DNA of 64,000 nt from a virus (Duplodnaviria > Caudoviricetes), in IMG/VR virus record IMGVR_UViG_2811995091_000080, positions 19,460-83,459 of that record. One strand, 5' to 3'. The notes below the pieces were generated by a model. It made no database searches. It was not told the DNA's origin and saw nothing but the letters and a program-made list of their open reading frames with translations. Position numbers and translations under genes: made by a program. Below, piece after piece: positions 1-64,000 of this stretch. Position 1 is the first letter of the stretch; every line of letters begins with the position of its first letter.

Positions 1-328
1 CGTGGAAACCACGCACCTGAAGTCGGCAAACCGCCGCCGCGAATATACCACCGGCATGATCGACGGCGGCGAACTGGAGGTGACGCTGAACTTCCGTCCC
101 GGAACGGATACGGACCAGCTCATTGAGGGCGCGCTGACTGGCGGCGATCCTCGAGCGGCCCGCTTCAACATTCCCGAACTGGGCACACTGGCGTGGACCT
201 ACGACACCACCGTTCAGGTTATCGGCTACAATAAGGGCGAAGTGACCGCAGACGGCAAGATGGAAGCCACTGTCACGATGGCCGTTAGCGGCGCTGTGAC
301 TGGCGGCGCATACGTCGAGCCTGTTTAA
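1..328 (+). CDS. Tail tube (major tail) protein, copy A, 5'-truncated by window edge
   Basis: Directly upstream of chaperone and tape measure; 'THLKS..REY..G..DGGE..V.LNF.PG' resembles lambdoid tail tube proteins; distant similarity to 42016..42468. Confidence 0.8.
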   Translation, partial: VETTHLKSANRRREYTTGMIDGGELEVTLNFRPGTDTDQLIEGALTGGDPRAARFNIPELGTLAWTYDTTVQVIGYNKGEVTADGKMEATVTMAVSGAVTGGAYVEPV

Positions 329-714
329 TGGCTAACGCGATCAAAGGCGAAACCCCGCTCGTCCTTAGCGACGGGCGGGAGTTCACCCTCGTTCTCGACA
401 TGGAAGCCCTTGTCGAAGCGGAAACGATCTACGGAAAGCCGCTTTCCAAGTTGATGGAAGACGCCATGTCAGGCTTCATGGGGGCAGCTGCCGCCATGTT
501 GCAGGGGGCCGCTGCCCGCCATCACGGGTTGAAGCGCGGCGATGCGCTCGAAATCATTCGCACCGACATGGGCGAGGTGGTTGAGGCCCTCACACGCGCA
601 AGCGAAAGCGCCTTTCCTGATGAGGTGGAGGCGGGAAACGCGCCCGCGCCCAAGCCCAAGGCAAAAAAGCCTCGTGGGAAGACCTCTGGGCGCAATGGTG
701 CGAAGCAGGGCTAG
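328..714 (+). CDS. Tail assembly chaperone (gpG-like), copy A
   Basis: Between tail tube and TMP; in-frame slippery heptamer G-GGA-AAC at 633..639. Confidence 0.8.
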   Translation: MANAIKGETPLVLSDGREFTLVLDMEALVEAETIYGKPLSKLMEDAMSGFMGAAAAMLQGAAARHHGLKRGDALEIIRTDMGEVVEALTRASESAFPDEVEAGNAPAPKPKAKKPRGKTSGRNGAKQG

Positions 715-953
715 AGCCTGACGCATTCTGGCGGGCGACCCCCCGCACCTTTGCGCTGATCGTCAGCGCACGAATGAAGGCGACGGGCGACCTCGCCACG
801 ATGATCGGTTGGAGTTCCGAGCGGTTTGCGCGGCTCCAGAAGGTCAAGTCGCTGGATGAATACCTGAAACCGGCAAAGCCAACGTCAGCAGACGAAGGCG
901 CAAGGGCTGTGCAGCGCATGTTCGCGCGCATGGCAGCGAAGCAAGGGGAATAA
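633..953 (+). CDS. gpT-like extension produced by -1 frameshift (gpGT), copy A
   Basis: -1 frame is open from GGGAAAC (633) to TAA 951..953 and reads ...WEDLWAQWCEAGLEPDAFWRATPRTF..., a typical gpT motif; no own start with RBS; ends 1 nt before TMP start. Confidence 0.75.
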   Translation, partial: GKRARAQAQGKKASWEDLWAQWCEAGLEPDAFWRATPRTFALIVSARMKATGDLATMIGWSSERFARLQKVKSLDEYLKPAKPTSADEGARAVQRMFARMAAKQGE

Positions 954-954
954 C

Positions 955-2970
955 ATGGCGCTAGGTGACGTTATTGCCCGCTTGGCGGTGAACCTCTCGC
1001 TTGAGACAGCAGCCTTCGAGAAGGGCGCAACCAAGTCCGAAAAGCGCATGAACCAGATGCGCCGCAAGTTCTCGGACTTCAGCAAGTCGATTGCCATTGG
1101 CGCGGCGGGCATCGGGACGGCCATTGCGGGCATCAATAAGGTCTTTGGCGACCTCGCCCAGAAGTCGAAGGAGATGGGCAACGCGGCGCAGGTCGCGGGC
1201 GAAAGCTTCGAGGACTTCCAACGCCAAGCCTACGGCGCGCGGATGGTCGGCGTCGAGTTCGACAAGCTGGGCGATATTTTCAAGGACGTTCGGGATCGCA
1301 TCGGTGACTTCGCCCAGACGGGCGGTGGGCCGATGGCCGACTTCTTCGAGAACATCGCCCCCAAGGTTGGCGTAACGGCCAAGGCTTTCGAGGGCTTGGG
1401 CGGTAGGGACTCGCTTCAGCTTTACTACGATAGCTTGAAGAAGGCGAACGTCAGCCAAGAGGATATGGTCTTCTACCTGGAGGCTATGGCTTCGGACGCC
1501 ACCAACCTGATCCCGCTGCTTGAGAATGGCGGCGCGGCTTGGGAGCGTTACGGCGATAAGGCTGCGGTTATCACCGAGGACCAGCGCGCCCAGCTTCAGC
1601 GTTACGAAGAGTCGATGGCGAAGCTGGACAACTCGCTCCAGCAGCTTGCGCTAACGCTGGTCGATAGCGGTCTGATCGACAAGTTCGCCAACTTCGCGGA
1701 GCAGCTTGCGGCTGTCACCGAAGGCTTTAGCGGCGTCTCTGTTGCGGCTAATGCTGCCGATGAGGAAATGAAGAAAACGGAGGGTGCGCGCAAGTTCGGT
1801 AGCGACCTCCGCGCCCTTAGCGACAGCATCAACGAATGGTATCTGGCGACCGATAAGGCGTTTGCCGATGCTGGCGCGGGCATTCGTAACTTCTTCGTCA
1901 GCGTGTGGGATGGCTTCAACCGATGGTGGACCGACCTGAAGGCCACGGCTGCGCAACTGGCGCAGGTGGGCAAGGATATGGTCGCGGGTCTTGTCAGCGG
2001 CATCAAGTCTGCCCCCGGCGCGGTGGGTGACGCACTTGTCGGCATCGCCTCCAGCGGGCTTGCGAAGGTCAAGAACTTCCTTGGCATCAAGTCGCCTTCG
2101 CGCGTCTTTATGGAGATCGGCGGGTATATCTCCGAGGGTCTGGCCATCGGGATCGAGGGCGGCATCGGGCGCGTCAATGCTGCGGTCGGCAAGATGACGG
2201 AAGCGGCAAAGCAGGCGGCGCGTGAAACCCAGGCCTTGCTCGACCGCCTGTTTCCTGAAGTGCGCAAGATGCTCGACTATGAGCGCGAACTGCAACTGAT
2301 CGGCAAGGCTGACCTGTCCGACGATGCGAAGACCGAAGCGCGTCTGCGTCTGGGGCGGGAGCGCGATGGGCGTCCAGTCGAAGGCGGTGGCTTCACGGTA
2401 TCGGATAGCGTCTTGAACGCGCCCAGCCTGATTAAAGGCATGGAAGAAGTGGGCGATAGTCTGAAAGGGCTTGGCGACAAGGCTAAGGTTCAGACCGTCC
2501 GCATTGCCGAGACGTTCAAGGACATGGCCGAAAGCACGCTTGCTGCGGTTGACCGGATGGCGAACGCTATCAAGGGCGGCGGCTTCCTTGATATCCTTTC
2601 CGGCGTGGTGGGTCTGGGTATTCAGCTCGGCAGCATCGGCGCATTCGGCAAGAGCATTCAGGCGAACATCAACAAGGGCATTCCCGGCTATGCGACGGGC
2701 ACCCGCAACCATCCCGGCGGTCTGGCAATCGTCGGTGAGCGCGGGCCGGAGCTAGTGAGTATGCCGCGCGGATCGTCGGTGTTCACCAATAGCGAGAGCC
2801 GCGCGATGATGGGCGGTCGTGGCGGCAACACCTACAACTTCAGCGGCAACCTTCTGACGCCGGAGTTCTGGGACCGGATTAACGCTGGCGATATGGCTGC
2901 TGCGCAAGGCGGCGCGCAAGCTGCGGCCCAGAACTCTCGCTTTGCTGCTTCACGGAGTTTGCGCCGATGA
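955..2970 (+). CDS. Tape measure protein, copy A (671 aa)
   Basis: Long Ala/Gly-rich helical protein after chaperones; C-terminal GYATG..GERGPEL motif. Confidence 0.9.
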   Translation: MALGDVIARLAVNLSLETAAFEKGATKSEKRMNQMRRKFSDFSKSIAIGAAGIGTAIAGINKVFGDLAQKSKEMGNAAQVAGESFEDFQRQAYGARMVGVEFDKLGDIFKDVRDRIGDFAQTGGGPMADFFENIAPKVGVTAKAFEGLGGRDSLQLYYDSLKKANVSQEDMVFYLEAMASDATNLIPLLENGGAAWERYGDKAAVITEDQRAQLQRYEESMAKLDNSLQQLALTLVDSGLIDKFANFAEQLAAVTEGFSGVSVAANAADEEMKKTEGARKFGSDLRALSDSINEWYLATDKAFADAGAGIRNFFVSVWDGFNRWWTDLKATAAQLAQVGKDMVAGLVSGIKSAPGAVGDALVGIASSGLAKVKNFLGIKSPSRVFMEIGGYISEGLAIGIEGGIGRVNAAVGKMTEAAKQAARETQALLDRLFPEVRKMLDYERELQLIGKADLSDDAKTEARLRLGRERDGRPVEGGGFTVSDSVLNAPSLIKGMEEVGDSLKGLGDKAKVQTVRIAETFKDMAESTLAAVDRMANAIKGGGFLDILSGVVGLGIQLGSIGAFGKSIQANINKGIPGYATGTRNHPGGLAIVGERGPELVSMPRGSSVFTNSESRAMMGGRGGNTYNFSGNLLTPEFWDRINAGDMAAAQGGAQAAAQNSRFAASRSLRR

Positions 2971-3536
2971 TTGAGCTTCCTACCGGCGTAGTGCCGAGCG
3001 AAATGGAAGTGCTGGCGCTCGACCAAGGGAGCGTTGTGCGTGGGGCTTCCTCGCTTCGTATCGACCGCCCCGGCAACCGCTACGCAATCGGCTTCACGTT
3101 CCCGCCTAGCGCCAAGCCCAAGCTTGCAAGGATCGTTCGGGCAAAGCGGCAGGGCATCCGTGTTTATCTGCCGCTGAAAGTGCCGCAGGGGTCGCCGGGA
3201 ACGCCTGTGGTCGATGGCGCGGGCCAGTCGGGCACCTCGCTTGACGTTCGCGGCTTCACGCCGGGGTATTTCGCTAAGGAAGACTACTGGCTGACGATCA
3301 TAGACGCCAGCGGCAACGGCTATCTGCATCAAGTTGTCGAGACGGTGGGCGCGGACGGGACCGGAGCGGCAACCCTTAGCATCGAGCCGCCTCTGCGTGC
3401 CCCGTTCGCTGATGGTGCGACTATCGAGTTCGCCAAGCCCTACATCGAGGGTTTCATCGACGGTGAGAACTGGGGCTGGAACACGCCGACTAACTGGCTG
3501 GTGTCGATTGGCTTGGTGGTGGAGGAATACGAGTGA
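2967..3536 (+). CDS. Distal tail (Dit-like) protein, copy A
   Basis: First gene after TMP; near-identical to 46536..47105. Confidence 0.7.
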   Translation: MIELPTGVVPSEMEVLALDQGSVVRGASSLRIDRPGNRYAIGFTFPPSAKPKLARIVRAKRQGIRVYLPLKVPQGSPGTPVVDGAGQSGTSLDVRGFTPGYFAKEDYWLTIIDASGNGYLHQVVETVGADGTGAATLSIEPPLRAPFADGATIEFAKPYIEGFIDGENWGWNTPTNWLVSIGLVVEEYE

Positions 3537-4147
3537 GCCGCGTTGCCCTAACCGGCCTCCTGACAATCGAGCTGCCCGAAGCAACCCTGCGCTTCACCGA
3601 TGGCGGCTTCATCGAATACAACGGCGAAACCTACCGCGCCAAGGATGACACCTTCGGCACGATCCAGTCGGTGCAGCCGCTATCCGAAGGCGTGGGCGAT
3701 AGCGTCCCTGCCCTGTCGATCACGATGCTACCGCCCGATACAAGCGCAGTCGCAGACCTGACCAAGCCGGGACACCAAACCTCGCAAGTGCAATTTGTGC
3801 TGGCGGAATACGATGTTGACGCGGGCACGATCAATTCGGCGGATGTATTGTTTACCGGACAGATCGACCAAAGCGTTCTGACGGTCGGCAAGGGCAAGCG
3901 CGAACTGGCGATGTCGGTTGTGAGCCTCGCTGAGCGGCTTTTCGAGGGCAACACCGGCAACTCGCTCAATCCTACGTTCCACAAGTCGGTGTGGCCTGGA
4001 GAAACGGGCCACGACAACGCAACGGGCCTTGCTGTTCCGGTTGCATGGGGCGTCGAGCGTCCCGGCGCGGGCACTCGCACATCGGGAAGCGGAAGCGGAC
4101 CTGCGGGGCGCGAAGGCTTCGGCACCTACAGATACGATTACCGCTGA
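3533..4147 (+). CDS. Tail tip / minor tail protein, copy A
   Basis: Synteny; near-identical to 47771..48388. Confidence 0.65.
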   Translation: MSRVALTGLLTIELPEATLRFTDGGFIEYNGETYRAKDDTFGTIQSVQPLSEGVGDSVPALSITMLPPDTSAVADLTKPGHQTSQVQFVLAEYDVDAGTINSADVLFTGQIDQSVLTVGKGKRELAMSVVSLAERLFEGNTGNSLNPTFHKSVWPGETGHDNATGLAVPVAWGVERPGAGTRTSGSGSGPAGREGFGTYRYDYR

Positions 4148-4148
4148 T

Positions 4149-4574
4149 ATGAAAAAGCTACCGGAACTTGAGCGCCGCAGGATTGCAACGGAAAAGACCC
4201 TTGCCCGCTATCGGCACAAGGAGTTCGATTGGTCGAAGGGTATCACCTGCGTTCACCTCGCGCGTTTTCACCTGCGCAACATGGGGCACAAGGTCGAGAC
4301 GTTGCCGCGCTTCCGTAGCGCACTGGGGGCCAAGCGGGCGCTTAGTGGGAAAGGCTATGGCAGTCTCGGGCGGCTGATGGACCGGATGCTCCCGCCGATT
4401 GCGCCTGCGCAGATGATGCTTGGGGATCTCGCGATGGTCCCCGGCGAGCAAGGGCTGGATGCACTGTTCGTCTGCGCTGGCCCGCTGAAGCTGTTTGGCT
4501 GGCGGGAGGACGAACCGAAGCTGGTCATCCTCGACGTGTCTTTGGACGAACTCACCGCGAGCTGGAGGGTGTAA
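4149..4574 (+). CDS. NlpC/P60-like (gpK-position) tail assembly protein, copy A
   Basis: ATG 4149; 'FDW....TC.H.A...L..MG' Cys motif; paralogue 48390..48815. Confidence 0.6.
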   Translation: MKKLPELERRRIATEKTLARYRHKEFDWSKGITCVHLARFHLRNMGHKVETLPRFRSALGAKRALSGKGYGSLGRLMDRMLPPIAPAQMMLGDLAMVPGEQGLDALFVCAGPLKLFGWREDEPKLVILDVSLDELTASWRV

Positions 4575-4575
4575 T

Positions 4576-6531
4576 TTGGCCAAAGCAGTCAAGACCATAG
4601 GGACGGTGGTCGGAACGATCGCGACCATCGCGTCATTCATTCCCGGTCCGCACCAGCCTTTCGCGATTGCAGCGTCTCGCATCGCTGCTGTTGCGGTCAC
4701 GGCGGCAACGGTTGCGGAGGGCCTTACGGCCAAGCCGCCTCCCGCGCGGGGAAGTGTAACCCAAGTCCTGATCGCGCCGGATGCGCCGCAACCTTACGTC
4801 ATGGGTGAGGGTTATTTTGCGGGCGTTCTGCGCCATGATGTCGGGTATGGCGCGACGCTCAAAAAAGTGCCCAATCCCTATCGGTTCATGCCGGTGGTGT
4901 ATTCGGGCGGCGGGCCGGTTCAAAGCATCTCGCCCCGGTTCGATTTCGAGACAATTCCAAGCTGGTATAACGGCTTCCTCTACACCGACACCCAGTTAGG
5001 CGCTTGCCCCGAAGCTGATGCGCTGTCGCCTCAATGGGCGGGGGCTACGGGGTGGAGTTCGTCCTCCAAGCTATCCGGCCAAGCCGCGATTGGATGGAGC
5101 GCGCTTTTCGATAAGGACGGCAAGCGTTTCGCGGGCGTCGATCTACGCAGCTCTATCGGTGCGTATGGCCAGTGGGTGAAGGTCTATGACCCGCGCAAGG
5201 ACAGCACGTTCCCCGGCGGTTCTGGCTCGCACCGACTGGGTGACGAAACCACCTACGAATACAGCGCCAACCCTGCCCTGCACGCGGGCACGTATGCTTA
5301 TGGCCGCTATCAAAACGGCAAGCGCACGATGGGCATGGGGCTGGCGGCGGATGCTGTCGATTGGGCCGTTATCGCCGCTTGGGCGAATGTCTGCGAAGCG
5401 AACGGTTGGGAAAACTTCTTCGGCGTAGTTTACGAGCCGGGCGACCGCTGGGCGAACCTGAAGGATATTTGCTTCGCTGGCGGGGCTGAGCCGGTTGCAT
5501 TGGGGCAGCTAACCTTCCGCTATCGCGCGCCCACTGTCGCGCTCGATACGATCACCGAAGCGGACCTTACGGATGACGATCAAAGCGTGATGGCGATGCA
5601 GTCCTTCCGCGACCGCATCAACACCGGCATTCCGAAGTATCGCAGCCCTGCCCACAATTGGGAAATGGTCGATGCGGAGCCGGTGGTCAACTCCACCTTC
5701 CTGACCGAAGACGGCGAGGAAAAGCGCGAAACGTGGCCCTGCAACTTCGTCACCGACGAGGACCAGGCATCGCAGCTTGTGGCCTACCATATCTGGGACA
5801 GCCGCGAACTGGCCCCCATCTCGCTGGTCTGTATGCCGCGACTGCGCGCCTACCGCCCCGGCGAATGTCTGCACCTCGACCTGCCGGAACTGGGGCTGGA
5901 CACGACAGCAATCATCTTGCGGCGCGAACTCGATCCGGCGACCATGAAGGTGAAGCTGGAACTGATGGGGGAAACGAGCGCAAAGCACGCTTACTGCTTG
6001 GGCCTTACCGGCACGGCACCGCCTACGCCTGCAATCGGGCAGACAGCGCAAGAGCGGGACGAACTCGCTTCCGCTGCCGCCGATCCGGCAGGTCTTGGGA
6101 CGCTTAAGCTATCGAGCAGCTACACGCGCGGCCTCGCTGGTAACATCACGCAGATCCACGATGGCACCGGGACGGGCACGGTAACGGTCACGATACCCGA
6201 CCACACCCGCGTATATGCGGACGGCACCGAGGCGTCCGTGACTGGCGGCGACTTCACGCTGAACGAAACAACCAGCTATCTCCTGTCCTATGATGACCCC
6301 GACTTCGCAGGTGGCGAGTTGGGTGTGGACTTTTCGCTGGTTGAGATCACTCCCGGCACGGGCGGGCAGACTGGCGGCGATGCGGATTTCAGCGCAGCCA
6401 ATCCGAACCGCCATTACCTCGCTAGCATCAGTACGGTGAACGAGGCTGGCGAAGGCGGCGGCGCAGGCGGCTCGTCGCCTCCCGGCGGCGGGGGCTGGGA
6501 CAATGACGATCCCGGCGGCGACATACCCTAA
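4576..6531 (+). CDS. Tail tip / baseplate hub (gpJ/Tal-like), copy A
   Basis: TTG start after AGGGTG; ~650 aa; 'VKVYDPRKDST' motif common in tail tip proteins; paralogue 48817..50766. Confidence 0.75.
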   Translation: MAKAVKTIGTVVGTIATIASFIPGPHQPFAIAASRIAAVAVTAATVAEGLTAKPPPARGSVTQVLIAPDAPQPYVMGEGYFAGVLRHDVGYGATLKKVPNPYRFMPVVYSGGGPVQSISPRFDFETIPSWYNGFLYTDTQLGACPEADALSPQWAGATGWSSSSKLSGQAAIGWSALFDKDGKRFAGVDLRSSIGAYGQWVKVYDPRKDSTFPGGSGSHRLGDETTYEYSANPALHAGTYAYGRYQNGKRTMGMGLAADAVDWAVIAAWANVCEANGWENFFGVVYEPGDRWANLKDICFAGGAEPVALGQLTFRYRAPTVALDTITEADLTDDDQSVMAMQSFRDRINTGIPKYRSPAHNWEMVDAEPVVNSTFLTEDGEEKRETWPCNFVTDEDQASQLVAYHIWDSRELAPISLVCMPRLRAYRPGECLHLDLPELGLDTTAIILRRELDPATMKVKLELMGETSAKHAYCLGLTGTAPPTPAIGQTAQERDELASAAADPAGLGTLKLSSSYTRGLAGNITQIHDGTGTGTVTVTIPDHTRVYADGTEASVTGGDFTLNETTSYLLSYDDPDFAGGELGVDFSLVEITPGTGGQTGGDADFSAANPNRHYLASISTVNEAGEGGGAGGSSPPGGGGWDNDDPGGDIP

Positions 6532-6545
6532 GAAGGAAAACACAA

Positions 6546-6944
6546 ATGACCCAGCATGGTGACTGGCTGCGCTCGCTTGCGTCAGCCGGAAAGGGCGGCG
6601 TTGAACTTCCGCCGATTGACCGGGGCTTGCCCTACGAGCTTGTCCTGAACGTCCCGATTGATGTCAGTTCGGACGCATTCAGCGCATCGCTGCGCGTTTC
6701 GCCTGACGCTTCCGGCAGTACCCTTGCAGACTTCTCGGTTTCGGTTGGTTCGTGGGACGGGACTTACACGCCAGTCACGCTCAGCCTCACCGACACGCAG
6801 GTCAATGCGCTCCCTTCGGATGGCGACGCAGACGGGCAGGTCGAGCTTGTGATGGACGTTCTGCGCGATCCCAGCGGCAGCGCCATCGAATACCGCTTTC
6901 TGGGCGGAAATATCTACGTGAACGGGAAGGTGACCAATGCCTAG
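6546..6944 (+). CDS. Conserved virion protein (fibre adaptor candidate), copy A
   Basis: Strong RBS AAGGAA; near-identical to 50781..51179. Confidence 0.6.
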   Translation: MTQHGDWLRSLASAGKGGVELPPIDRGLPYELVLNVPIDVSSDAFSASLRVSPDASGSTLADFSVSVGSWDGTYTPVTLSLTDTQVNALPSDGDADGQVELVMDVLRDPSGSAIEYRFLGGNIYVNGKVTNA

Positions 6945-9066
6945 CATTCAACTGGTTATGGACGCCAACGAGCGAGTCATCGGGCTTGGCGACGATACGG
7001 CTGAGGCTGCCCGCCAAGCAGTGAGGGCAGAAGCGGAAGCCGACCGCGCAGAAGCGCAGGCAGACCTTGCTGCAACGCACGCGAACACGGCGGGGAATTA
7101 TGCCGAGACGGCACGCTCCCTTGTCGGTGGTGCTGTTTATGAGGACACGACTGCGGGCCTCGCCGCCACTGTAGACGGCGAGTTTTTCGTAGTCGCGAAC
7201 GACACCGAACACGCCCTGTATCGCAACGATAGCAGCTCGGCGGTTTTCGTGCGCGACCTCGCACCCGACAATTACGTCACGCCGGAAATGTTTGGCGAGG
7301 TCGGCGCGGGCGCAGACGACAACGCGCTTTTCACCGCAGCGGTTGCAAGCGGGAAGCCCGTACGCGCGATGGGTAGCACCTACCAGCTAAACCCGATGGA
7401 GTTCACCAGCGCGGTGGACATTGAGTTTGGTTCGCAGACCGAAATCCAGAACCTACAGGCTTCCGGTCCGAAGAAAGCGACGATTACCGTCAAGGGCGGG
7501 GTCACAGGGCCGCTGGTCACGGTTTCGTCCTTCGATCTCATCAATGCGGGCGGCACCGTAACCGCACTAACCATTGGCCAGCTTTCGCGCATCATCAATG
7601 TTGCCGATGCAAGCAGCTTTGCGGCGGGCGATGTTGTGCGTATTTCGGAGAACGACCCGGCCACCACTTCGACCAGGAAGGGGACTGCTGGCGCGGAAAC
7701 GCAGGACCGCAACTATCGCGAGTTCGCAACGATTGACTCCATCGCCGGTAACAAGATCACGCTGCGCGAGTTTGTCCGGTGGCCCTACACTGCGGCAAAG
7801 TCGCTCAAGGTGCAGAAGGTCAACTTTGTCGAGAACCCGCGCATTGTCGGCGGCAAGTGGACCGGTGGCATTGGGGGCGGCGGCGCGCTGGCTTTCGAGT
7901 TCTGCCGCCACGGCAAGCTGTGTGATGACATTCACGTCGAAGGCAATTCCGAGGCTGACCGCTTCGGCGGCGCATCCGTCACTGTCCGCGACTGCTGGGA
8001 AGTCGAGCGCGGTTCGATCTACGCCAAGTGGTGCCTTTTCACCGCCCTGACCGAGCGCAATCAGGCGAGCATATTTGGTCGCATTCGCGGCAAGCGGACG
8101 CAGAACGGCGGCTCGATCCAGAGTGGTGATATTCTCTCCAATTTCGCAGAGATCGTGCAGGACGCCCCCGGCGACGACAATGGCGACGGTATCGGCGTTT
8201 CCAACGGGTTCCGGGGGAACACGGTCGGCTCGTTCATTATGTCGGGTGCGAATTGCTACGGAATGTGGCTGCGCCAAGGCTGCGACGACAACACTTTCGT
8301 TTCGTTCACCAGCATCAACGGCATCACGCTCGGCATTCAGGTCTACGGCAACCGTAACACCTTCAGCAACGTCCACATTCGCGGCCATGCTTCGGGCGGC
8401 CTTCTGCTCGCTGGCGACGACAACCAAGCGCACGTTGACATCGAGGTGCAGGGACAGGCGGTCGGGCTTGGGCCGAGCAGCAGAGGCAATCGCGTCACAG
8501 GGCGCGCGATTTCTACCGGTGTGGGGGTAACGTCTTTCGACCTCACAGTCTCGACTGGCGTTACCGACAGCTACGTGGACATCCAATCCGGGCCGCGCGG
8601 CATCAGTTATGCGGCGGGAGTGCTTCCGCACGCCAGCAACACCTTCTTCCTTCGCGGCCCGAATCCGCATGTCGTCAACACGCTCCGAACCGACCGAGGG
8701 TATCAATGGTCTGGATATGTGACTGTTACCGGCGGGGCCAAGATACTTGAGGTGCCCGAGCGCAAACCGGATGGCACATGGGGCACCAACGGGCTTTACG
8801 AAATCCAGCCTACGGCGGGCGATGCCGCCAATGTTTATCGCATCCGCCTGCAATTGTCGTCCACGCTGGCCGATGTGCGAAGCGAGTACGAGGTTATCTC
8901 TCGGCAGGGTGCGTTCACCATCCGCACAATCCATGAAGGTGCCGGGACTTACGCGGCCTTCGCGCCGAAACTGCGGGCAGCGACCGGCACCAGCGGGCCG
9001 ACGCTTGAGATTTACCGAACCGAGACGGGGGCTGCTCCCACCATCGTTTACGTCGAGAAGTATTAA
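6937..9066 (+). CDS. Tail spike / receptor-binding protein with predicted right-handed beta-helix (depolymerase-like), copy A
   Basis: 'YVTPEMFG..GA..DD..A...A' pectate-lyase-3-like entry motif, then G/N/I-rich beta-helix-like repeats; first ~27 aa shared with 51172..52878. Confidence 0.75.
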   Translation: MPSIQLVMDANERVIGLGDDTAEAARQAVRAEAEADRAEAQADLAATHANTAGNYAETARSLVGGAVYEDTTAGLAATVDGEFFVVANDTEHALYRNDSSSAVFVRDLAPDNYVTPEMFGEVGAGADDNALFTAAVASGKPVRAMGSTYQLNPMEFTSAVDIEFGSQTEIQNLQASGPKKATITVKGGVTGPLVTVSSFDLINAGGTVTALTIGQLSRIINVADASSFAAGDVVRISENDPATTSTRKGTAGAETQDRNYREFATIDSIAGNKITLREFVRWPYTAAKSLKVQKVNFVENPRIVGGKWTGGIGGGGALAFEFCRHGKLCDDIHVEGNSEADRFGGASVTVRDCWEVERGSIYAKWCLFTALTERNQASIFGRIRGKRTQNGGSIQSGDILSNFAEIVQDAPGDDNGDGIGVSNGFRGNTVGSFIMSGANCYGMWLRQGCDDNTFVSFTSINGITLGIQVYGNRNTFSNVHIRGHASGGLLLAGDDNQAHVDIEVQGQAVGLGPSSRGNRVTGRAISTGVGVTSFDLTVSTGVTDSYVDIQSGPRGISYAAGVLPHASNTFFLRGPNPHVVNTLRTDRGYQWSGYVTVTGGAKILEVPERKPDGTWGTNGLYEIQPTAGDAANVYRIRLQLSSTLADVRSEYEVISRQGAFTIRTIHEGAGTYAAFAPKLRAATGTSGPTLEIYRTETGAAPTIVYVEKY

Positions 9067-9068
9067 GC

Positions 9069-9164
9069 GTGTCCTCTTCGCTCAAAGCCATACTGGTGAT
9101 GCTTCTGGCATGGCCGTTAAGCGAGTGCGCGTTTGACCTTGTGCAAAGCAGGAGGCGGCGGTGA
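9069..9164 (+). CDS. 31-aa hydrophobic micro-protein (MSSSLKAILVMLLAWPLSECAFDLVQSRRRR)
   Basis: Translated by hand; same length, synonymous and conservative changes versus 52878..52973; stop overlaps next GTG. Confidence 0.6.
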   Translation: MSSSLKAILVMLLAWPLSECAFDLVQSRRRR

Positions 9165-9765: not shown

Positions 9766-9863
9766 GTTATCCCCGAACAAATTGAGAACAGCGTAGTCCG
9801 CGAAGGTGGGTCGCGCTAGCATGTATTTCGAGGCCTAGCAATAGGCGTTGTGGGAGGGATCGC

Positions 9864-11906: not shown

Positions 11907-11941
11907 GCCCCACGGCTACCACAAAAGCGAGGACATAGCAA

Positions 11942-53769: not shown

Positions 53770-53822
53770 GTTTTCCCCGAACATTTACAGAACAACGTAG
53801 TCCGCGAAGGTGGGCCGCGCTA

Positions 53823-54440: not shown

Positions 54441-54495
54441 ACCCTTTTCATAAAAGAAATTGCTCGTCGCCACAAGGCTCTTCGGGAGGATTCTG

Positions 54496-55662
54496 TTGAA
54501 GATCGACCCTGAACTTTATTCGTATTGCACCGACCGCCAACGCGAGGTGCTTGAAGCTTACGAAGAACACGGCACCGGGCCTGCGGCTGCGGAGGCCCTA
54601 GGCGGCACCGACCGCACCTATCCCGACAAGGTGTTGCGCGACGTTCGCAAGAAGGCGGCTCGGGAGGGATATGCACCGGGACATTTCCAGGACGGCGTTG
54701 CCCCCGGCTACCTTATGGGCAAGGTTACGGTGCAGCGCGGCCCCGGCGGCGTTGAGCGCGTATGGGAGCGGCAGTCACCGGACCAAACCCGCGCACTTGA
54801 GGCGCTTAGGGAAGTAGTCGAAGGCATCCAGTCGGATATCGAGCCAGCGCCCCGGGTCAAGGCTCCGGCGGTTGCTAACTCGGACCTCTGTAACCTTTTC
54901 ACTTTCACGGATTACCATCTCGGAATGCTCGCTTGGCATCGCGAAGGCGGGCAGGATTGGGACCTCCAGATTGCCGAAAGCACTCTGCGCAAGGCGATGG
55001 CCGCAATGGTTTCGCAAAGCCCCATTGCGCACACGGCAGTGGTCAACATTCAGGGGGACTTCCTGCACACGGATGGCCTGACGCCAGTTACGCCTGGGCA
55101 TGGCAATGTCTTGGATGCTGACAGTCGTTTCCCGAAGATCCGCAAGGCGGCTATCCGCCTTATCCGCGAGCTTTGCCGGATGGCGCTGGAAACGCACATG
55201 GAAGTGCATCTTATCCTAGCGGAAGGCAACCACGATCAGGACAGCATGGGCTGGCTGGCTGACAGCTTCGCGGTCCTTTACGAAGATGAGCCGCGCTTGA
55301 CGGTCAACGACAGCAACCTCCCCTTCTACGTGGTGGAATGGGGCGAAACGATGATCGGCGTCCATCATGGGCACAAGGTCAAGAACGAACAGCTTCCGCT
55401 CTTGTTCGCGGCTCAATACGCGCAGGCGTGGGGCCGCACCCGCCGCCGTGAAATCCATTGCGGGCACCGGCACCATCGGGACGAAAAGGAATACAACGGC
55501 GTCACGGTTGTGCAGCATCCGACACTGGCGGCCCGGGATGCCTATGCAGCGCGCGGGGGCTGGATTGCCGACCGCGCGGCTCAGGCGATCACCTACCACA
55601 AGCGATACGGGCAAGTTGGCCGCGTTATGGTCTGCCCTGAAATGCTGGAGGAGGCGGCGTGA
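54496..55662 (+). CDS. Calcineurin-like metallophosphoesterase, copy B
   Basis: Same length as 9864..11030; 4 amino-acid differences by my reading. Confidence 0.85.
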   Translation: MKIDPELYSYCTDRQREVLEAYEEHGTGPAAAEALGGTDRTYPDKVLRDVRKKAAREGYAPGHFQDGVAPGYLMGKVTVQRGPGGVERVWERQSPDQTRALEALREVVEGIQSDIEPAPRVKAPAVANSDLCNLFTFTDYHLGMLAWHREGGQDWDLQIAESTLRKAMAAMVSQSPIAHTAVVNIQGDFLHTDGLTPVTPGHGNVLDADSRFPKIRKAAIRLIRELCRMALETHMEVHLILAEGNHDQDSMGWLADSFAVLYEDEPRLTVNDSNLPFYVVEWGETMIGVHHGHKVKNEQLPLLFAAQYAQAWGRTRRREIHCGHRHHRDEKEYNGVTVVQHPTLAARDAYAARGGWIADRAAQAITYHKRYGQVGRVMVCPEMLEEAA

Positions 55663-56347
55663 GCTGGACTCAAGGCGTCATGCTCCGCGAGGAGATGGAC
55701 GAGCAGATGATTGCGCGCCTTGAAGCGGCTTACACGCGGCAGACCGGCGAAGAGGCTAAGATCGAATTCCTGACTTGGTTCACGCTTGATGGCTCGGACG
55801 CGATTGCTCACTTCGACAGCCAGCGTGGCTTTAGGCTCGGGAGGGCGGCATGATTGCTCCCCTTCCCATTCCCGCCGCCCCTACGGCTGAAGAGGTCGCC
55901 CGCAATATCGAGCAGCGGATCGCGCGGTCGGTAGAAAAGGCACTGGTCGAACGTGACCGCCAGTTGAGAGGTGCGCCATGATACCCTCTATTTTCGACAT
56001 TGGCGTAGATGCAGCGGACTACGTTGCCCCCTACCCTGTCACCTATAGCAATTGGGATTTGTGCGAGGGGCTTCCCGACGAGGAATTGACGGTGGTTTTC
56101 GAGCCGGACTTCTGCGCCAAGCTGCCGGAGGAATGCCCCGAAATGCTGGTGGTGGACGAAGGCGACTTTGGCGATGAATAGCGCCGCGCAAGCCCTCCGC
56201 GATGCTGCCGATTGCGTGGCCGCGAGCGCCATTGGCGAGATCAAGTCCGACGAGGTTAAGCTAATCGCCTACCACATCAAGCGCCTGTGTGGCGGCGGGG
56301 ATGTTGGCGAGGAAACCCGTCTCCTAATCAGGATACTAGAGCGATGA
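55659..56347 (+). other. Small gene string: 55659..55853 (B-specific), 55850..55981 (43 aa), 55978..56181 (acidic), 56174..56347 (57 aa)
   Basis: Coupled ORFs; the last three are orthologous to copy A. Confidence 0.65.
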
Positions 56348-57009
56348 ACCGCACTCATATTTTCAACGCTGTGCGCGAGATACTCAAAGGCCGCGACCGC
56401 AAGCCCGTGTTCCGCCAATTCGAGGTTGACGCACTGGACGCTGCGATTGACGCGGCCATGCGCGAGACTGGCGAGCAACTTGCGACCGAAAGCCGGGGCG
56501 CTGATGCATTCGACCGCGCCTTGCCTATCCTGCTGGCTCAGGAGGGCGGCTATGTTAATCATCCGTCAGATCCCGGCGGCAGAACCAACCTAGGCGTCAC
56601 TCAGAACACTTGGGAGGCGTGGACGGGCCACAAGGCTACGGAAGCGGAAATGCGCGGGCTGTCGGTGTCCGATGTAGCGCCCCTCTATCGCGCCCGGTAT
56701 TGGGACGCTGTGCGAGGCGATGACCTCCCGCCTGGAATCGCGCTGTCGGTGTTTGACTTCGGCGTTAACGCTGGTCCTGCCCGCGCCATCCGATATTTGC
56801 AGATCGCGGTGGGCGCTACGCCTGACGGAAAGATTGGCCCCAAGACGCTGGCGCGGGTGAATGAGCGCACCGACGCGGACCTAGTGCGGGAGTATGCCGA
56901 GCATCGCCGCAGCTACTATCGCCGCCTCAAGACCTTTAGCGTGTTTGGCAAGGGCTGGCTGCGGCGTGTGGGCCATATCGAGGCGGAAGCACTCAAACTC
57001 GCAACCTAG
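56344..57009 (+). CDS. Endolysin, glycosyl hydrolase 108 family with C-terminal peptidoglycan-binding domain, copy B
   Basis: EGGYVNHPSDPGG.TN.GVT, YWD, FDFGVNAG, FGKGWLRR. Confidence 0.92.
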   Translation: MNRTHIFNAVREILKGRDRKPVFRQFEVDALDAAIDAAMRETGEQLATESRGADAFDRALPILLAQEGGYVNHPSDPGGRTNLGVTQNTWEAWTGHKATEAEMRGLSVSDVAPLYRARYWDAVRGDDLPPGIALSVFDFGVNAGPARAIRYLQIAVGATPDGKIGPKTLARVNERTDADLVREYAEHRRSYYRRLKTFSVFGKGWLRRVGHIEAEALKLAT

Positions 57010-57018
57010 GGGGATGCC

Positions 57019-57135
57019 ATGAAGGGCGGATTATTCGTGGGCGGTATGAGCATTGCCGCTACAGGGAATATAGCCGCCTTTTGGTGTGCCGCTGTCTCGG
57101 TGGGATTGGTTATTGCTTGGCGGGTGGCGAGTTAG
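57019..57135 (+). CDS. 38-aa hydrophobic micro-protein, copy B
   Basis: MKGGLFVGGMSIAATGNIAAFWCAAVSVGLVIAWRVAS; orthologue of 12544..12660. Confidence 0.6.
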   Translation: MKGGLFVGGMSIAATGNIAAFWCAAVSVGLVIAWRVAS

Positions 57136-58022
57136 TGGCGCTGTTGGCGCGATGCCGCTCCAGCCTTTCCAGTGCTTCGTCTTCAGCGTCGATCCGGCTC
57201 CAACCCTGCCGCCGCAGTCCATCCACTACGCTGTCGTAAAAACTCTGCTCGTTATCAGGCAAGAATTTACCTTCACTCATCCTTCACTCGCTTTCTTCCG
57301 CTTATGCAGACGGTCCATGATCTTGCGCCTCTCTGCTCGGAGAGGGCTTAGGGCAGTAAGGGCAGCGTCTATCTCTGCCAGCCTACGCTTCTCTGTTGGG
57401 GTGGCGTAGTCGAGGGGGTTAGGCATCGGGTGCCTTCGGTAGGGGCATCCAGTGCGACGGCGTGTCGGCGTGCATTCCATTGCAGGGCACGCGGTCTTCG
57501 CTCTCCATATCGCAGCAACCCGTGGGCGTTAGGTCGAAGTCTTCGACGAACCGCCATTTAAAGGTCGGCTCGCTGTCTTCCCACCAGCCTACGCTTACGC
57601 CGTGTGACGCGGCCAGAATAACAGCCCGCCCGTCCTTCGGCGCGGTATCAATCGGCTGCCAGTCCATACTCAATCTCCTTTGTCGGTGGCGTGGGGGTTA
57701 GTTGTTGCGTCCGCCGTCGATTACCTTGAGCGGGACGAGGCGACTTTTGCCGTCGCCCATGGGGATTGCCCGAACCCGCCCTTCATCAAACCACTTATCA
57801 ATATCACGGCTTTCGTCGTAACTGTCGCACCCATCCCACAGGCAGCCCCGCCATTGCTCGTCTTCATCTGGCGTAGGCGACGGACACACCGAGAAAACCT
57901 CCCCGCAGCTTTCGCAGCGATATTTCGCAACGGGAGTGCCGTATTCGTTGAGGGTCTCACCAATCCTGCTCATCACAACTTCCTTTCTCCACACATAATA
58001 CAGAACCGCGCCCGCAAAGCAA
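57135..58022 (-). other. Leftward operon in lysis region B: promoter 57995..58022, Cys-rich gene 57698..57973, DUF551-like 57419..57667, shared gene 57277..~57426
   Basis: CESC/C..GC motifs; 'WQPIDTAPKDG...PSHWMPLPKAP' is DUF551-like. Confidence 0.65.
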
Positions 58023-58068
58023 GCGGAAAACGTCATTTATTTGCTGGACAGAGGCAACGGAACATGCC

Positions 58069-58284
58069 ATGAACAAAACACCATGCGAGACGCCGTTTTT
58101 CCAATGGCTCGACAAGCTGAACCGCCCCGTCACGCGCTGGGGGTTTTCCATCGTGGCGGTCGCATACGGAGCGCGGGCTGTGCTGGGTGCTGACTTTGAC
58201 CCGATGGCCTTTGCCGCATTGGTCGCCCCCGCTGGCTTTACCTACTGGCGGCGCGGTGATGAGAAGCTGAAAGGAATTGAGTGA
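58069..58284 (+). CDS. Holin-like 2-TM protein, copy B
   Basis: Same slot as 13465..13704 but not similar in sequence. Confidence 0.55.
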   Translation: MNKTPCETPFFQWLDKLNRPVTRWGFSIVAVAYGARAVLGADFDPMAFAALVAPAGFTYWRRGDEKLKGIE

Positions 58285-58544
58285 TGCCTAGGACTGCGAA
58301 GCGGGTATCCTACTTGTGGAACAAAGAGGCGGCAGAGCGCGCGGAAAGAAACGGGACGGGCTTCACTGCAAAGCAAAACGCAAGGGCCAACAAACTGGCG
58401 GTCCAAATCCTTATGCCCGCCACGCAGATCAAAGAGCATCTGGCGGCAGGGAGGACGGTCAAGGAACTTGCGGAGATGTATCAGGTCGCTGAAGCAGCGA
58501 TGGAAATCCGCGTTCGGGGCCTAATCGAAGGGACGCGCACCTGA
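58284..58544 (+). CDS. ImmA/IrrE C-terminal-like protein lacking HExxH
   Basis: 'RANKLAVQILMP' and 'LAEMYQVAEAAMEIR' match the C-terminal half of IrrE/ImmA proteins. Confidence 0.55.
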   Translation: MPRTAKRVSYLWNKEAAERAERNGTGFTAKQNARANKLAVQILMPATQIKEHLAAGRTVKELAEMYQVAEAAMEIRVRGLIEGTRT

Positions 58545-58686
58545 TGCCCCTCGGCAGCATAGATGGCGGCTTTATCCTCCGCGCTATCTGGCGGCGCTTC
58601 AAGGCGTGGTGGCAGGCAGACACGGGTGGTTGGCCCACGGCAGCTGTCCTGTTGGCGTCCGCCCTGTTCGTGGCGGCCATGCTGTC

Positions 58687-59004
58687 ATGATCGCAGCATG
58701 GCTTGGAACGAAGGCGCTTGGCCTACATCGGTGGGTCTGGCTGCTTGCCCTCCTGGCGGCAATCGTCGGCGGCATTCTGTGGCTACAGGCCCGCGAAGAT
58801 GCGGACGACAAGGACAACCAAGAGATCGGCGCAAAGGTCCAGCGCGAAGGCGACCTGCGCAAGACCATCGAACGGGCGGAGACAGCCAATGAAGCGCGTG
58901 ACGACATTAGCCGCAATCGGGATAACGCTCGCTATGACCAGTGCGTGCGGACAGCCCGAACCCCTGCGAACTGTGAGCGACTGCGTGTCATTCAAGAGGA
59001 TTAG
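58687..59004 (+). CDS. i-spanin, copy B
   Basis: Orthologue of 13903..14190. Confidence 0.75.
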   Translation: MIAAWLGTKALGLHRWVWLLALLAAIVGGILWLQAREDADDKDNQEIGAKVQREGDLRKTIERAETANEARDDISRNRDNARYDQCVRTARTPANCERLRVIQED

Positions 59005-59122
59005 CGCAGAGCCGCATCCCGTTGGGCCTAACGCGGACGATCCCGGCAACATGTTCGACACCGAGCAGACCTTTGGCGAGGTGCTGGCGCATAACGAGGT
59101 CTATGACCGGCTGTGTGGCTAA
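58889..59122 (+). CDS. o-spanin lipoprotein, copy B
   Basis: Lipobox TSAC; overlapping frame; shares DDPGN and HN...CG with A. Confidence 0.75.
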   Translation: MKRVTTLAAIGITLAMTSACGQPEPLRTVSDCVSFKRISAEPHPVGPNADDPGNMFDTEQTFGEVLAHNEVYDRLCG

Positions 59123-59182
59123 CCGACCACCGCCCCAATCACCCCCACGATAAGCCCCAGACCGATAAGCACCTGGACTGGC

Positions 59183-60452
59183 TTAGGTAGGCGCATTGGA
59201 TGCCTCGATCATGGCGCGGTAGGTGCGAGCGAGGCTTTCGCTCCCGTCATCATCGTAGAATGCGGCGTCGCCAGCCTCCACCATAGCCTCCGTGGGCACA
59301 GCACGCACCACAACGAACCCGGCTTGCTTGATTGCTGCTAGGGCGGCGTCGGCATTGCGCGGGTAGCCTTCACTGTTCGGGATGGTTTCTCGGCTCTTCA
59401 CCTCCGGCCATCCGCCTGCCTTGCGATCATCGTTCAGCAGAGCAAGCGCTATCACTTCCCTAAGATCATCCATGTTTGCTGTCCTCCTTGTGGTGGTCGA
59501 GGCGTTCGATGCACTCTGCGGCAGCGCGCCAATATTCATATTCCCTGCCGATTGAAGAGAAGCGCGGCCCACCCGACTCTTTCCGCAGCCATTCGACAAT
59601 CGCCGCCCGCTCCCGTTCTGCCTCAGTCATGGCTGGTGTCCTCGTCATTTGCGTGGGTCGATGATCTGGAGGGCCACACTCTTGAGTGCCTCGACCACAT
59701 CGGGCCGTTCCTCGTTCACAAGTGCTCCGTAGATCACATGATAGCAGCGGTCGCGTTCTTCATTGCGAGTATCGCAAATGCGCTTGAACCACGTGATTGA
59801 CTGCATCGCCTCGTCGCTGGTCTGTTTATCTGACATTAGTGTCTCCTGTGGCTAGGCGGGCAAGGGCGGCTTTGCTTGCGCGCATCATCGCCCTGCGTTG
59901 CTGGCGCGTGGTCGGGTATGGCGGGCCAAGCGGCGAGCGGTAGCGGCGGGGCTTCGGCTTCTTTCTCGGCAGATTGAGCGTCATTGCCGCGCCAGCCAGT
60001 GCCATGCGATGCAGCATTTACTCATCCCCCTCCAATTCGTAGCCTTGGCGTTTCGCCTGCTCCTTCACGATCTCGGGAAGGCAAGCGAGGAACAAAGCCT
60101 CGCTTGCGAATGCCGCCAGCATATTGCGGTTGTCAGCGGTCCAGGCTTCCCAAGGGCAAACAGCGCGGCGGTTGAACTCGGCGGTGACGAACTGCGCCAT
60201 CATCTATTCTCCTTCACTACTGGCTAGGCGGATGAACTCGACCGCGTGCAGCGGCGCTTCATAAACTGCGCCCTCGTAGGTGACGCGTATCCACGGCTGA
60301 TCGCAGTGCATCCCATTATGGGCGATGCGCTCGAACTTGGCCCCCGCCAACCTGTCGAACCGCCTGTCAACGGACGCGAGCTTGACCGCCTCGATTGTGC
60401 GGGTGTCCTTTTCCCAGATGCAGGGGAACTGGTTTTCCGGTTTACAGTCCAT
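59183..60452 (-). other. Six small leftward genes between spanins and attP B
   Basis: Coupled ORFs; junction sequences shared with 14717..15371. Confidence 0.55.
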
Positions 60453-60620
60453 CGGTAAGTCCTTGAGCAGTAAAGGCCGACACGGGCCGTTCGCTACCGC
60501 CAAGTGACTGTTCTGCCGAAAATACCGTTTGATTTGTAATCATCAGGTCATCCGTTCGAATCGGATAGTCGGCACCGCAAAACAGGGACTTAGCGACGGC
60601 TTGCTTTAGCGGTTTACACC
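60438..60620. other. attP-like site B: 3' half of tRNA-Thr(TGT) at 60533..60576 with CGGTTTACA repeats at 60438 and 60610
   Basis: TT-TGT-AA loop, TCATC, AGGTC, ATCCG-TTCGAAT-CGGAT, AGTCGGC-ACC; no 5' half; abuts integrase B stop. Confidence 0.85.
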
Positions 60621-61634
60621 CTACCCAGTAACGGATGGCCCCGCAAGGCGCACCGCTCGGGCTTTCGCAACCCGCGCCCGGTCCACATATCGAGCGCGAA
60701 TTGATGCGACGCGCTCGGCTGTCCAACCGATAACGTCTGCAATCTCGCTGTCCGAAAAGCCCGCTATCGCAAGCCGCGTGACAAAGGTGCCGCGCAGGTC
60801 GTGAAACTTGCGGTCGAAGCCCTCGGGCATTGCCTTGCGCCAGGACGACTGGAACCCACTTGAGGTCCACGGCTGCGCCCTGCTGTTCAACAGGACACGC
60901 CCCTTCCCCGGACCCATCAATGCCCGCGCCAGCTCGTCGTGCATCGGTATAACCGCCTCCCCGCCCGTCTTGGCGGTCGTGGTCGCTATATATGCCGGGT
61001 GTATCTGCTCCCATCGCAGGTTGAGCAAATCCCCTTGCCGAAGCCCGGTAAGGCTGGCGAGGACAAGCGCCCGCTTTATGTGCGGCGCTATGTCCTTCAC
61101 CGCTTGCCAGTGGCGCGGCTCCCATATCAGGTCCGCCCGGTTCGTCTTGTGCAGGTGTTTGATGCCCTTGGCGGCGTTCTGCGACACCAGCCCACGGTCG
61201 TATGCCCAGCCAAGCACGGTTGCCAGCGTCCCGATTGCTCGATCTGCAGCGCGCGGCGTGTCGGCCATGCTGTCCCGCCATGCCACCAGCGTTGCCCGCG
61301 CATCCGGTGCGTTGAATGCGCGGATGGGGGCCATGCCCCACTTCTTCGAGATACGGTCTAGCCATATTCGGTAGTCCCGCTGCGTTCCCGGCTTGAGCTT
61401 GGCGAAGTCGGGGCTTTGCCGATAGAGGTTGAGTATGCGGTCAAACCCGTCCGGTGATCCCCGCTCGCGTCGGGCAGCATAGGCAAGATCGAGCAGGGCA
61501 GGCGTAATTGCGGGCTTAGCGCCATCCTGAACATGGATACGCGGCCCGCCTCGGTATGCATAGACGAACCAGCGATCCTCACCGCTGGCCAGCCTTTTGC
61601 GGACTATGTGAAGGCCGGTCGAGATAGTCGGCAA
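60621..61634 (-). CDS. int: Tyrosine integrase B (different subfamily from A)
   Basis: TGLRQGD, KT, FHDLRGT, IGW, RY catalytic motifs. Confidence 0.93.
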   Translation of the reverse strand: MPTISTGLHIVRKRLASGEDRWFVYAYRGGPRIHVQDGAKPAITPALLDLAYAARRERGSPDGFDRILNLYRQSPDFAKLKPGTQRDYRIWLDRISKKWGMAPIRAFNAPDARATLVAWRDSMADTPRAADRAIGTLATVLGWAYDRGLVSQNAAKGIKHLHKTNRADLIWEPRHWQAVKDIAPHIKRALVLASLTGLRQGDLLNLRWEQIHPAYIATTTAKTGGEAVIPMHDELARALMGPGKGRVLLNSRAQPWTSSGFQSSWRKAMPEGFDRKFHDLRGTFVTRLAIAGFSDSEIADVIGWTAERVASIRARYVDRARVAKARAVRLAGPSVTG

Positions 61635-61791
61635 GGGAATCGCCCGCGTTCGAGTTGGCTGGCGGCGAAACCTTTACGTAGTCGGGGCCAATGTCAACGC
61701 CACACCGGGCCACGTCTATGCCCTGCTCGCGCAGGAACTCGAACATTTCCTTCACTTGGGCAACGGGGACAAGGCGGCGGGGCGCGGTCAC
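61579..61791 (-). CDS. Excisionase-position small protein, copy B
   Basis: Overlaps int B start; shares only MTAP with xis A. Confidence 0.5.
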   Translation of the reverse strand: MTAPRRLVPVAQVKEMFEFLREQGIDVARCGVDIGPDYVKVSPPANSNAGDSLADYLDRPSHSPQKAGQR

Positions 61792-61792
61792 A

Positions 61793-62558
61793 TTACTCTC
61801 CGTTGAGGTGCTTGCGGACGGCGAGGCCGGTTTCGTTCAACTGCGCCGAAAGATACCATTCCGTGCCAACCGGCTTGTCGGCCTGTGCGGAGCCGAGCCA
61901 TTCTTTCCTCCCGTAGTAGACCGGATAGTGGTAGCCGAGTTCGTATTCGTCGGGTTCCATCTGCACATAGAGCGGCGGCATCGCATCCCACTGTTCCGGC
62001 GAAAGCGAGGTGGGTATCGTGGGCATCGCCAGCACCCAGTCCCGCTGCGCCTCGGTCAGCTTCCCGGCTATTTCAGCGATCCTCTTATCCATTGTGGGCC
62101 TCCTGGGCGCGGAGGGTATCAATGTGCGCGTCAATATTCGTAATGGGTTCGGCACTTTCGAGCGCATCGGCAATGTCGAGGTGCAGTTGCGCCCGATCCT
62201 CACCGCTCGTTTTAGCCCCATCCGGACCATAATCGACGTGCATAAATTTGATGCCCTTCGATGACCACATGCGCTCAACTTCGCGCGCCTTCGGCCCCAG
62301 CATCGGCAGGATGTGTTCAAGCCGGTTGGCAAGTTGCTTCGCAGTATCGCGCCAAGCATCCCGTTCTCCCTCCAGCGCCTCGATCCGCTCGGCCAGCTTT
62401 GTTGTGTCGGTCATTGTGTTACTCCGGTTGGGGGTGGGACCATATCGAATAGTCAGGCTCGGGCGCGGCGCAGTGGCGGTGGACCATCGGGTTTACCTCC
62501 CGCCCCGTCGATGTCGGCTTGCAGATGTTCCGAAGGCTTTGCCCCTCCTCGGTCTGTC
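61793..62558 (-). other. Small early-left genes B (61793..62092, 62085..62414, 62419..~62568)
   Basis: Termini shared with copy A genes, cores different. Confidence 0.55.
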
Positions 62559-62560
62559 GG

Positions 62561-63139
62561 CTATTCATCAACGCCTCCTTTGAGTGCGCGGATGGTGGCG
62601 GCACATTCGCGGGCCTCTTTCCATGCAGCTTGTCGGCGGGGTCCTTGGTCTTGGTCGCCGTGATAGCTGGCGCGCTGGTCAATTTTCTTCGCAGCCTCTT
62701 CCAGCACTACATCCCTATCGGAGAGGGCGGCGAGGGCATCGGCTGCTCTATTCAGCGCAAGCGCGGCCCCATTCCATGCACCGACTGCACAGCCTTCGGA
62801 CGGCCCGCTCGGACCGCTGGCCGCGCAATCTGGGTTGCTACAGGCGATGCGAAAGTTTGTGCCTGTAGGCTCAAGATAAGGCTCGGTATCACCACAAAAC
62901 GGGCACGGAACCAACTCCCCCACCAGCGCGCTATCGGCCTTTGAGGCGGTGCGGGACACGCGCAAGACTTCGCCAGCCTTAAGCATGAAGCACGTCGGGC
63001 AGAGGACGCCGCCGGGATCATCCGTTGCCCCATCACCGCCCATGACGGCGTTCCACAGTTCATTGTCGGCGAACCATATCGGGTTCGGGTGGCCGCAATC
63101 GGCCTTGTCGCCGGGGCCGCTAATGTCATCCGCCATCAT
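62561..63139 (-). CDS. Protein with Lar-like (restriction alleviation) zinc finger
   Basis: LVPCPFCG...IACSNPDCAASGP...AVGAWN, plus an N-terminal CGH...CPTC motif; ATG 63139. Confidence 0.6.
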   Translation of the reverse strand: MMADDISGPGDKADCGHPNPIWFADNELWNAVMGGDGATDDPGGVLCPTCFMLKAGEVLRVSRTASKADSALVGELVPCPFCGDTEPYLEPTGTNFRIACSNPDCAASGPSGPSEGCAVGAWNGAALALNRAADALAALSDRDVVLEEAAKKIDQRASYHGDQDQGPRRQAAWKEARECAATIRALKGGVDE

Positions 63140-64000
63140 CAATCTCCAAACTCTCTGCAAATATCCTCGAAGCGCGGGAGCATCTTGCGTCCGTCCGCTT
63201 CTGCTGCCTTGCGTCCTCGCGCGGTAATCGCTGCCCGGAGTTGCGCCTGTTCGCGCTCGATGCGCTTGAAGGCGGCGATCTGCTCGGCAAGCGATAGCTG
63301 TGCGCCTGCTTTGACCAGGCGGGGCGCGCTGCGATGGGTGCGCTCGTAGGTGCTGGCGCGGGTCATGCTTCACCTCGTGCTTTGGCGATTGCTGCGCGGG
63401 CTTTAACCACGCACTCTGGCTCGGTGGGATCAAGACCGCCCGTGAAGTCTGGCAACAGACCCTCCAGCGCCTCAAGCAATTCCGGCGCGGCTGCGATCAG
63501 GCAGGCGTTGGCTTCTAGATCGCCGGGAACGTCGTCCGATCCCATGCGAACATCAGCGATAGTATCAAACTGGCCTAGCCCGATCAGTCTATGCTCTTCG
63601 CCATCCCCCCGTTCGTAATAATAAGGGAAGACCGCCCAAGGCCCCGGCGTATGTGCTTCCTTCGCCACCATCAATTCTCCTGTCCTGCGATAAGTGCCTC
63701 TGCCCGCGCTATGCTGGCCTGAATGCTGTCGATTGCTGCTATCTGCGCGTCACACAGGGCGATTGCGGTGGCCTGCGATGCCATGCGCCCACACTCCCGT
63801 TCGCGCAGATCCCGCGCGGCCCGTTCGTCGCAGCGCGCCTGCTGTGCCCTGCCCCGGTTCATGGCTGGGCCTCGTGGTAGGCTGCGAGGGCTTGGGCGGC
63901 GGTGGCATAAGCGAAGTCCAAAGCGCCTTCCCTGTCGTCCCAGCGATAGTTTTCACCAGCGTCGTCTTCTGCACTGGTCTGCGCCTTGATAGCCTCCAAC
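63139..64000 (-). repeat. Early-left genes homologous to 18690..19510 (63139..63366, 63363..63674, 63671..63862, partial ORF to window end)
   Basis: Long near-identical stretches with 18690..19510. Confidence 0.85.

Follow-up and report, generated by a model that had tools for sequence, protein, structure and literature searches.

An 83-kb virus record resembling a heterodimer of two marine temperate phages is very probably an assembly chimera of at least three

Can two different temperate phages be carried head to tail on one molecule? This question is raised by IMG/VR record IMGVR_UViG_2811995091_000080, a single 83,459-bp virus contig, of which positions 19,460-83,459 make up the window, the 64,000-nt stretch analysed here. 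Coordinates below are those of the window unless the record is named. The original prediction read it as a heterodimer of two phages, A and B, each with an unsplit attP for a different tRNA, and offered three explanations: joining at cohesive ends, recombination between co-infecting circles, or a chimera of assembly or library. The record contains most of phage A, whose sequence takes up the 19,459 nt between the record start and the window, and the whole of phage B; GC content is flat across the window at about 60%. We conclude that the record is very probably a metagenome assembly chimera of at least three related temperate phages and not a heterodimer. The phage parts are real, but the heterodimer is in all likelihood not a real biological feature.

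The gene cycle is indeed seen twice. Self-BLAST of the whole 83,459-bp record placed the two copies at an offset of 41.5-44.8 kb, where about 42-44.6 kb had been noted, and B can be aligned with 42% of the A part, at about 90% identity, in agreement with two genomes rather than a duplicated contig. The head modules of A and B are 95% identical, the A copy lying upstream of the window. The tail tubes show 31% identity over 83 amino acids, the tape measures (671 amino acids in A and about 960-990 in B) have only 52 residues in common, and the fibres share only short stretches. No BLASTP pair was found between the two endolysins or between the two integrases; the endolysins belong to different families (phage lysozyme in A, a GH108 enzyme in B), and both integrases match PF00589. 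The differing tail, lysis and integration genes, together with distinct att sites, identify A and B as two different temperate phages. Their main features in the window are as follows.

1..18803: segment of A, comprising tail, lysis, attP, integrase and the start of the early-left arm; 99.9-100% identical to standalone A contigs (L112, L118 and L119)
955..2970, plus strand: A tape measure, 671 amino acids, with PHROG tape measure matches
6937..9066, plus strand: A tail fibre or spike, 709 amino acids, called from weak PHROG fibre/spike matches and position
11942..12526, plus strand: A endolysin, phage lysozyme (PF00959)
16239..17210, minus strand: A tyrosine integrase, 323 amino acids (PF00589)
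19512..64000: complete circle of B, 44,489 bp, tiled by independent B contigs at 99.9-100%
19512..23697, minus strand: B early-left recombination module (NinB, HNH-like, SSB, Erf and the 3' part of the exonuclease gene), single copy in the record
33650..39479, plus strand: B packaging and head module, HK97-like (HNH, TerS, TerL, portal, Clp protease, capsid)
43579..46539, plus strand: B tape measure (PHROG)
51172..52878, plus strand: B tail fibre or spike, 568 amino acids
56287..57009, plus strand: B endolysin, glycoside hydrolase 108
60621..61634, minus strand: B tyrosine integrase, 337 amino acids (PF00589)

Several other genes were also seen. Between tail fibre and lysin, at 9864-11030 and 54484-55662, lies a 388-amino-acid metallophosphoesterase/exonuclease-like gene (phrog_704); it is present in A, B and a third phage introduced below, and its A and B copies are 98.7% identical despite replaced neighbours. 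Phage A has several HNH endonuclease-like genes (15385-15963 and 17938-18654 in the window; 2681-3187 and 16318-16869 of L001), and the start of the frame at 15385-15963 is called differently between assemblies. The start codons of Erf and of the A integrase likewise differ from the called ones in exact-protein look-ups. Within the head-tail operon of both phages lies a 106-amino-acid gene on the opposite strand (40628-40948, minus strand, with its A paralogue at L001 18084-18404; 90% identical).

Both A and B are uncultured marine phages, HK97-like temperate siphophages with a unit size of 43-44 kb, and Pfam finds the HNH-TerS-TerL-portal-protease-capsid module in both. They are like the HK97-like, cos-packaging temperate siphophages in the order and families of the head genes (HNH, Terminase_4, TerL, portal, Clp protease, HK97-type capsid), in a unit genome of 42-45 kb, in a tyrosine integrase beside a tRNA 3' half, and in a lambdoid early-left recombination arm. 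The nearest named capsids, at 51-53% identity, are those of the Burkholderia phages Bcep176 and phiE264-like, with genomes of 44-45 kb. No close named relative of A or B was found among GenBank phages, and scans of JGI metagenomes and IMG/VR returned distant relatives only. A GTDB scan with the B integrase gave matches at only 37%, so it identified no host. The one match to a named organism among relatives of this integrase, Alteraurantiacibacter at 63%, is a weak hint from protein sequence that the host may belong to the Erythrobacteraceae/Sphingomonadales.

Each phage has an attP-like site next to its integrase gene.

16138..16182, plus strand: attP-like site of A, 3' half of tRNA-Val(TAC)
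60530..60576 (approximate limits), plus strand: attP-like site of B, 3' half of tRNA-Thr(TGT)

As predicted, both sites have phage DNA on either side and only a tRNA 3' half, and ARAGORN found no tRNA in the window or upstream of it. The target of A is backed by a relative (L093) whose integrase is 74% identical and adjoins a full tRNA-Val(TAC). For B, the half-site points to tRNA-Thr(TGT) as the putative integration target; no integrated close relative of B was seen. Since both phages are temperate and carry tRNA-targeting integrases, one might picture a tandem double lysogen in a host chromosome. The record, however, has neither host DNA nor a full tRNA, standalone phage contigs have both att sites in identical form, and the seam lies 2.5 kb from the nearest att. 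The position of the seam and the absence of host DNA exclude a tandem lysogen, to which we assign next to no probability; the original prediction had also argued against it.

The tRNA-Val half in the attP of A keeps the T stem but has the unusual T-loop ATCGTGG, compared with TTCGAGC in a relative's full tRNA. The bases at 54 and 58 have changed places (T54 to A, A58 to T), and the relative L091 has ATCGTGA. A hybrid of the A half with a relative's 5' half could still be folded into a cloverleaf by ARAGORN once the threshold was relaxed. Should integration exchange the host's half for the phage's, the resulting lysogens would have a tRNA-Val whose T-loop is altered. The third phage (L123; ERZ2772627 NODE_177, 42,006 bp) has another integrase followed by an apparent tRNA-Pro 3' half at about 13227-13380, suggesting that this group of marine phages uses at least three tRNA targets (Val, Thr and Pro) on one chassis.

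The first explanation placed the join at cohesive ends near 33990.

33990..34000, plus strand: candidate cos of B, between the HNH and small terminase genes; identical in A

As a cos, the site is plausible because it is identical in A and because an independent A contig starts directly after its equivalent, as do three relatives; these are contig ends and not read termini. A second candidate cos, for which the original prediction had proposed to inspect the flanks, lies upstream of the window, and the two sites are 42.7 kb apart. As a junction, the site at 33990 does not hold. Although A and B have the same candidate cos, which speaks for joining at cohesive ends, the site at 33990 has B alleles on both sides: one B-only contig (L133) spans 32016-52468 at 100% identity and another (L104) reaches 33993. 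At the upstream cos, both flanks carry A alleles (L112). With alleles of a single phage flanking each cos, cohesive-end joining is refuted for this record, and its probability is negligible. The B recombination module at 19512-23697 is single copy, and repeats lie at the record's start and end, which places the join near there and not at 33990.

We located the parents by exact-protein look-ups in Tara Oceans and other marine assemblies. In independent assemblies of the Tara Oceans type, each phage was recovered by itself as a unit-length contig, with an identity of about 99.9% or better. A standalone B scaffold measures 44,532 bp, which is 44,489 + 43; the 16,024 bp of it that were compared run across the point where the record's end joins its middle and differ from the B circle at one base. 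Standalone A contigs of 43,282 and 43,347 bp were found, the latter equal to an A circle of 43,292 bp plus a 55-nt overlap. The records were compared in part, and it is from this length arithmetic that we infer the standalone A and B records to be circular. Standalone A matches the record's first 3,377 bp exactly and window positions 6239-18803 at 99.9%, with at most four SNPs; record positions 3378-10413, upstream of the window, fall outside every A contig compared. Standalone A also has an arm of its own, 4,979 bp long, that is missing from the record. The join in the window is absent from the standalone contigs: all four A contigs examined carry A's arm, and the B scaffold carries B's arm. 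The samples from which these independent contigs came may differ from that of the record.

The exact A tape measure occurs on 12 contigs and the exact B integrase on 17, none of them of 50 kb or more, and no contig of that size carries the A integrase or the SSB, exonuclease or fibre of B. A single contig of 50-200 kb, known to us from the size table only, has the exact tail tube protein of B. It could represent a further chimera or a prophage together with flanking host DNA; a second copy of the dimer seems unlikely, as no 50-200 kb contig was counted for the A and B proteins just listed. Population variants were also seen: an A variant (L113) has a 33-bp in-frame deletion in the fibre (698 against 709 amino acids), a B variant (L096, 12757-13163) has a different left arm beyond 19944, and variants of the third phage (L127-L129) diverge after 19232.

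Where, then, is the true seam? It lies at 18676-19464, where the sequence passes from A to the third phage within 128 identical bases and then from the third phage to B within 68.

18676..18803: seam 1, 128 nt identical between A and the third phage
18804..19396: third-phage segment of about 0.6 kb, neither the A nor the B allele
19397..19555: seam 2, 68 nt (19397-19464) and 90 nt (19466-19555) identical between B and the third phage, with one SNP between them

The first 88 nt of seam 1 are also identical to B at 63147-63234; a pattern taken from within seam 1 had no match in IMG/VR. The segment at 18804-19396 is absent from standalone A and B and is found exactly within a 2,858-bp contig (L126), a variant of the third phage, for which the related standalone contig is the 42,006-bp one named above. 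B and the third phage co-occur in run ERR594312. At the SNP in seam 2, standalone B has T and the third phage has C, while the record has T at 19465 and C at 63954. A 46-nt terminal repeat (19466-19511 = 63955-64000) closes B as a full circle, and the record ends 46 nt past this swapped SNP. At the other end, the record's first 137 nt equal window positions 23698-23834; the base just left of this identity differs between standalone A and B, and the record starts at its first base. When the seam and the record end were painted with k-mers, the order was A, third phage, B, round B, third phage, and every k-mer up to k = 68 occurred in some parent. Three other assemblies stop at exactly 63223, within the stretch common to all three phages, which indicates a real branch point of assembly graphs.

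Only part of the head-to-tail dimer survives. The two distinct temperate phages and their unsplit attPs stand, whereas the junction involves a third phage, which supplies 18804-19396, and an A that lacks 4,979 bp. A real heterodimer with two integration specificities is left unsupported, since unit-length A and B exist alone and the seam is not at cos.

Lambdoid concatemers and cointegrates are replication intermediates joined at cos or by recombination. Like them, the record has two unit genomes that follow one another head to tail and point the same way; it is unlike them in that its junction is off cos and non-reciprocal, three parents are involved, and one genome is incomplete. Recombination between circles of A and B, the second explanation, does not fit and was rejected. 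An A x B cointegrate would have two reciprocal junctions and keep both genomes whole, whereas the record shows no reciprocal A/B junction, B closes on itself, the 4,979-bp arm of A is absent, and a third parent has to be invoked.

A more elaborate recombinant can be proposed, in which a B circle crossed over through the 68-nt stretch into a mosaic consisting of A with an early segment from the third phage; the record would then show the product during replication in a co-infected cell. Formally, a single crossover would yield the arrangement seen: third phage, 68 nt, all of B, another 68 nt, and third phage again. These phages encode Erf, NinB, SSB and an exonuclease, and the group is highly mosaic in its early-left arm. 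Against the chimera, moreover, it must be said that a real recombinant would likewise switch parents inside identical stretches. However, such a molecule would require three parents and would have to dominate the reads in order to be assembled; the ends of the record are not natural, one falling 46 nt past the SNP and the other at an exact edge of identity; and neither junction occurs on any independent contig. In addition, an HK97-type terminase cuts at cos to unit genomes during packaging (PMC9410871), and with two cos sites 42.7 kb apart the recombinant would be cut in this way and would be short-lived. We consider it improbable.

A real unit-length hybrid could instead have been present in the sample and been merged by the assembler with A and B. 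It would comprise the head, tail and integrase of A, the third-phage segment, and the recombination, immunity and replication arm of B, running 42.7 kb from cos to cos. This is a packageable length, and B variants with a different left arm do exist (L096). Every A-integrase contig inspected, however, has A's own arm and none has the hybrid, and the 83-kb record would remain a chimera even then. Such a hybrid seems to us more improbable still.

An assembly chimera, the last of the three original explanations, is thus the one favoured by the evidence: the parents exist separately at unit length, the switches fall in exact shared stretches of 128 and 68 nt, and the record ends at graph branch points. 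The parents, the points of switching, both ends of the record and the absence of A's own arm can each be observed directly, and from them we infer that the join was almost certainly made by software rather than in a cell.

We suggest the following course for the chimera. A, B and the third phage would have coexisted in one marine sample, and short identical stretches of their early-left arms would each have become a single collapsed node in the assembly graph. Starting at the 137-nt node shared by A and B, inside the exonuclease gene, the assembler would first have gone round A. Its path could then have left A for the third phage in the 128-nt shared node, entered B through the 68-nt shared node and circled all of B. 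On its return, it would have taken the SNP branch of the third phage and ended where that branch rejoined sequence already used. The end, 46 nt past the SNP, fits a branch rejoining at k = 47, but a k of about 47 is only a fit, as the record's assembler is not known; MOCAT/SOAPdenovo picks a k near half the read length (PMC3474746). A first model, in which a 4.2-kb repeat common to A and B had collapsed completely, was ruled out by standalone A's own, different arm. Chimeric contigs from coexisting viruses with similar regions are a known error, affecting fewer than 5% of contigs of at least 10 kb in simulations (Roux et al. 2017, PMC5610896). Compared with those chimeric virome contigs, the parents, switch points and third donor are here mapped to the base.

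As a matter of housekeeping, the 83-kb record should be split: B is window 19512-64000 and complete, and A runs from the record start to window 18803, without 4,979 bp. Comparisons of a 'prophage A' with a 'prophage B' within the record concern two separate phages and not one genome. If the recombinant were true, one molecule would carry two integrases, two att sites and two immunity regions, module exchange would have been caught in the act, and the formation of phage mosaics in nature would be open to direct view, which is rare. As it is, the join carries little biological weight, being that of two temperate phages connected by software; A and B themselves are real, and are two ordinary marine phages.
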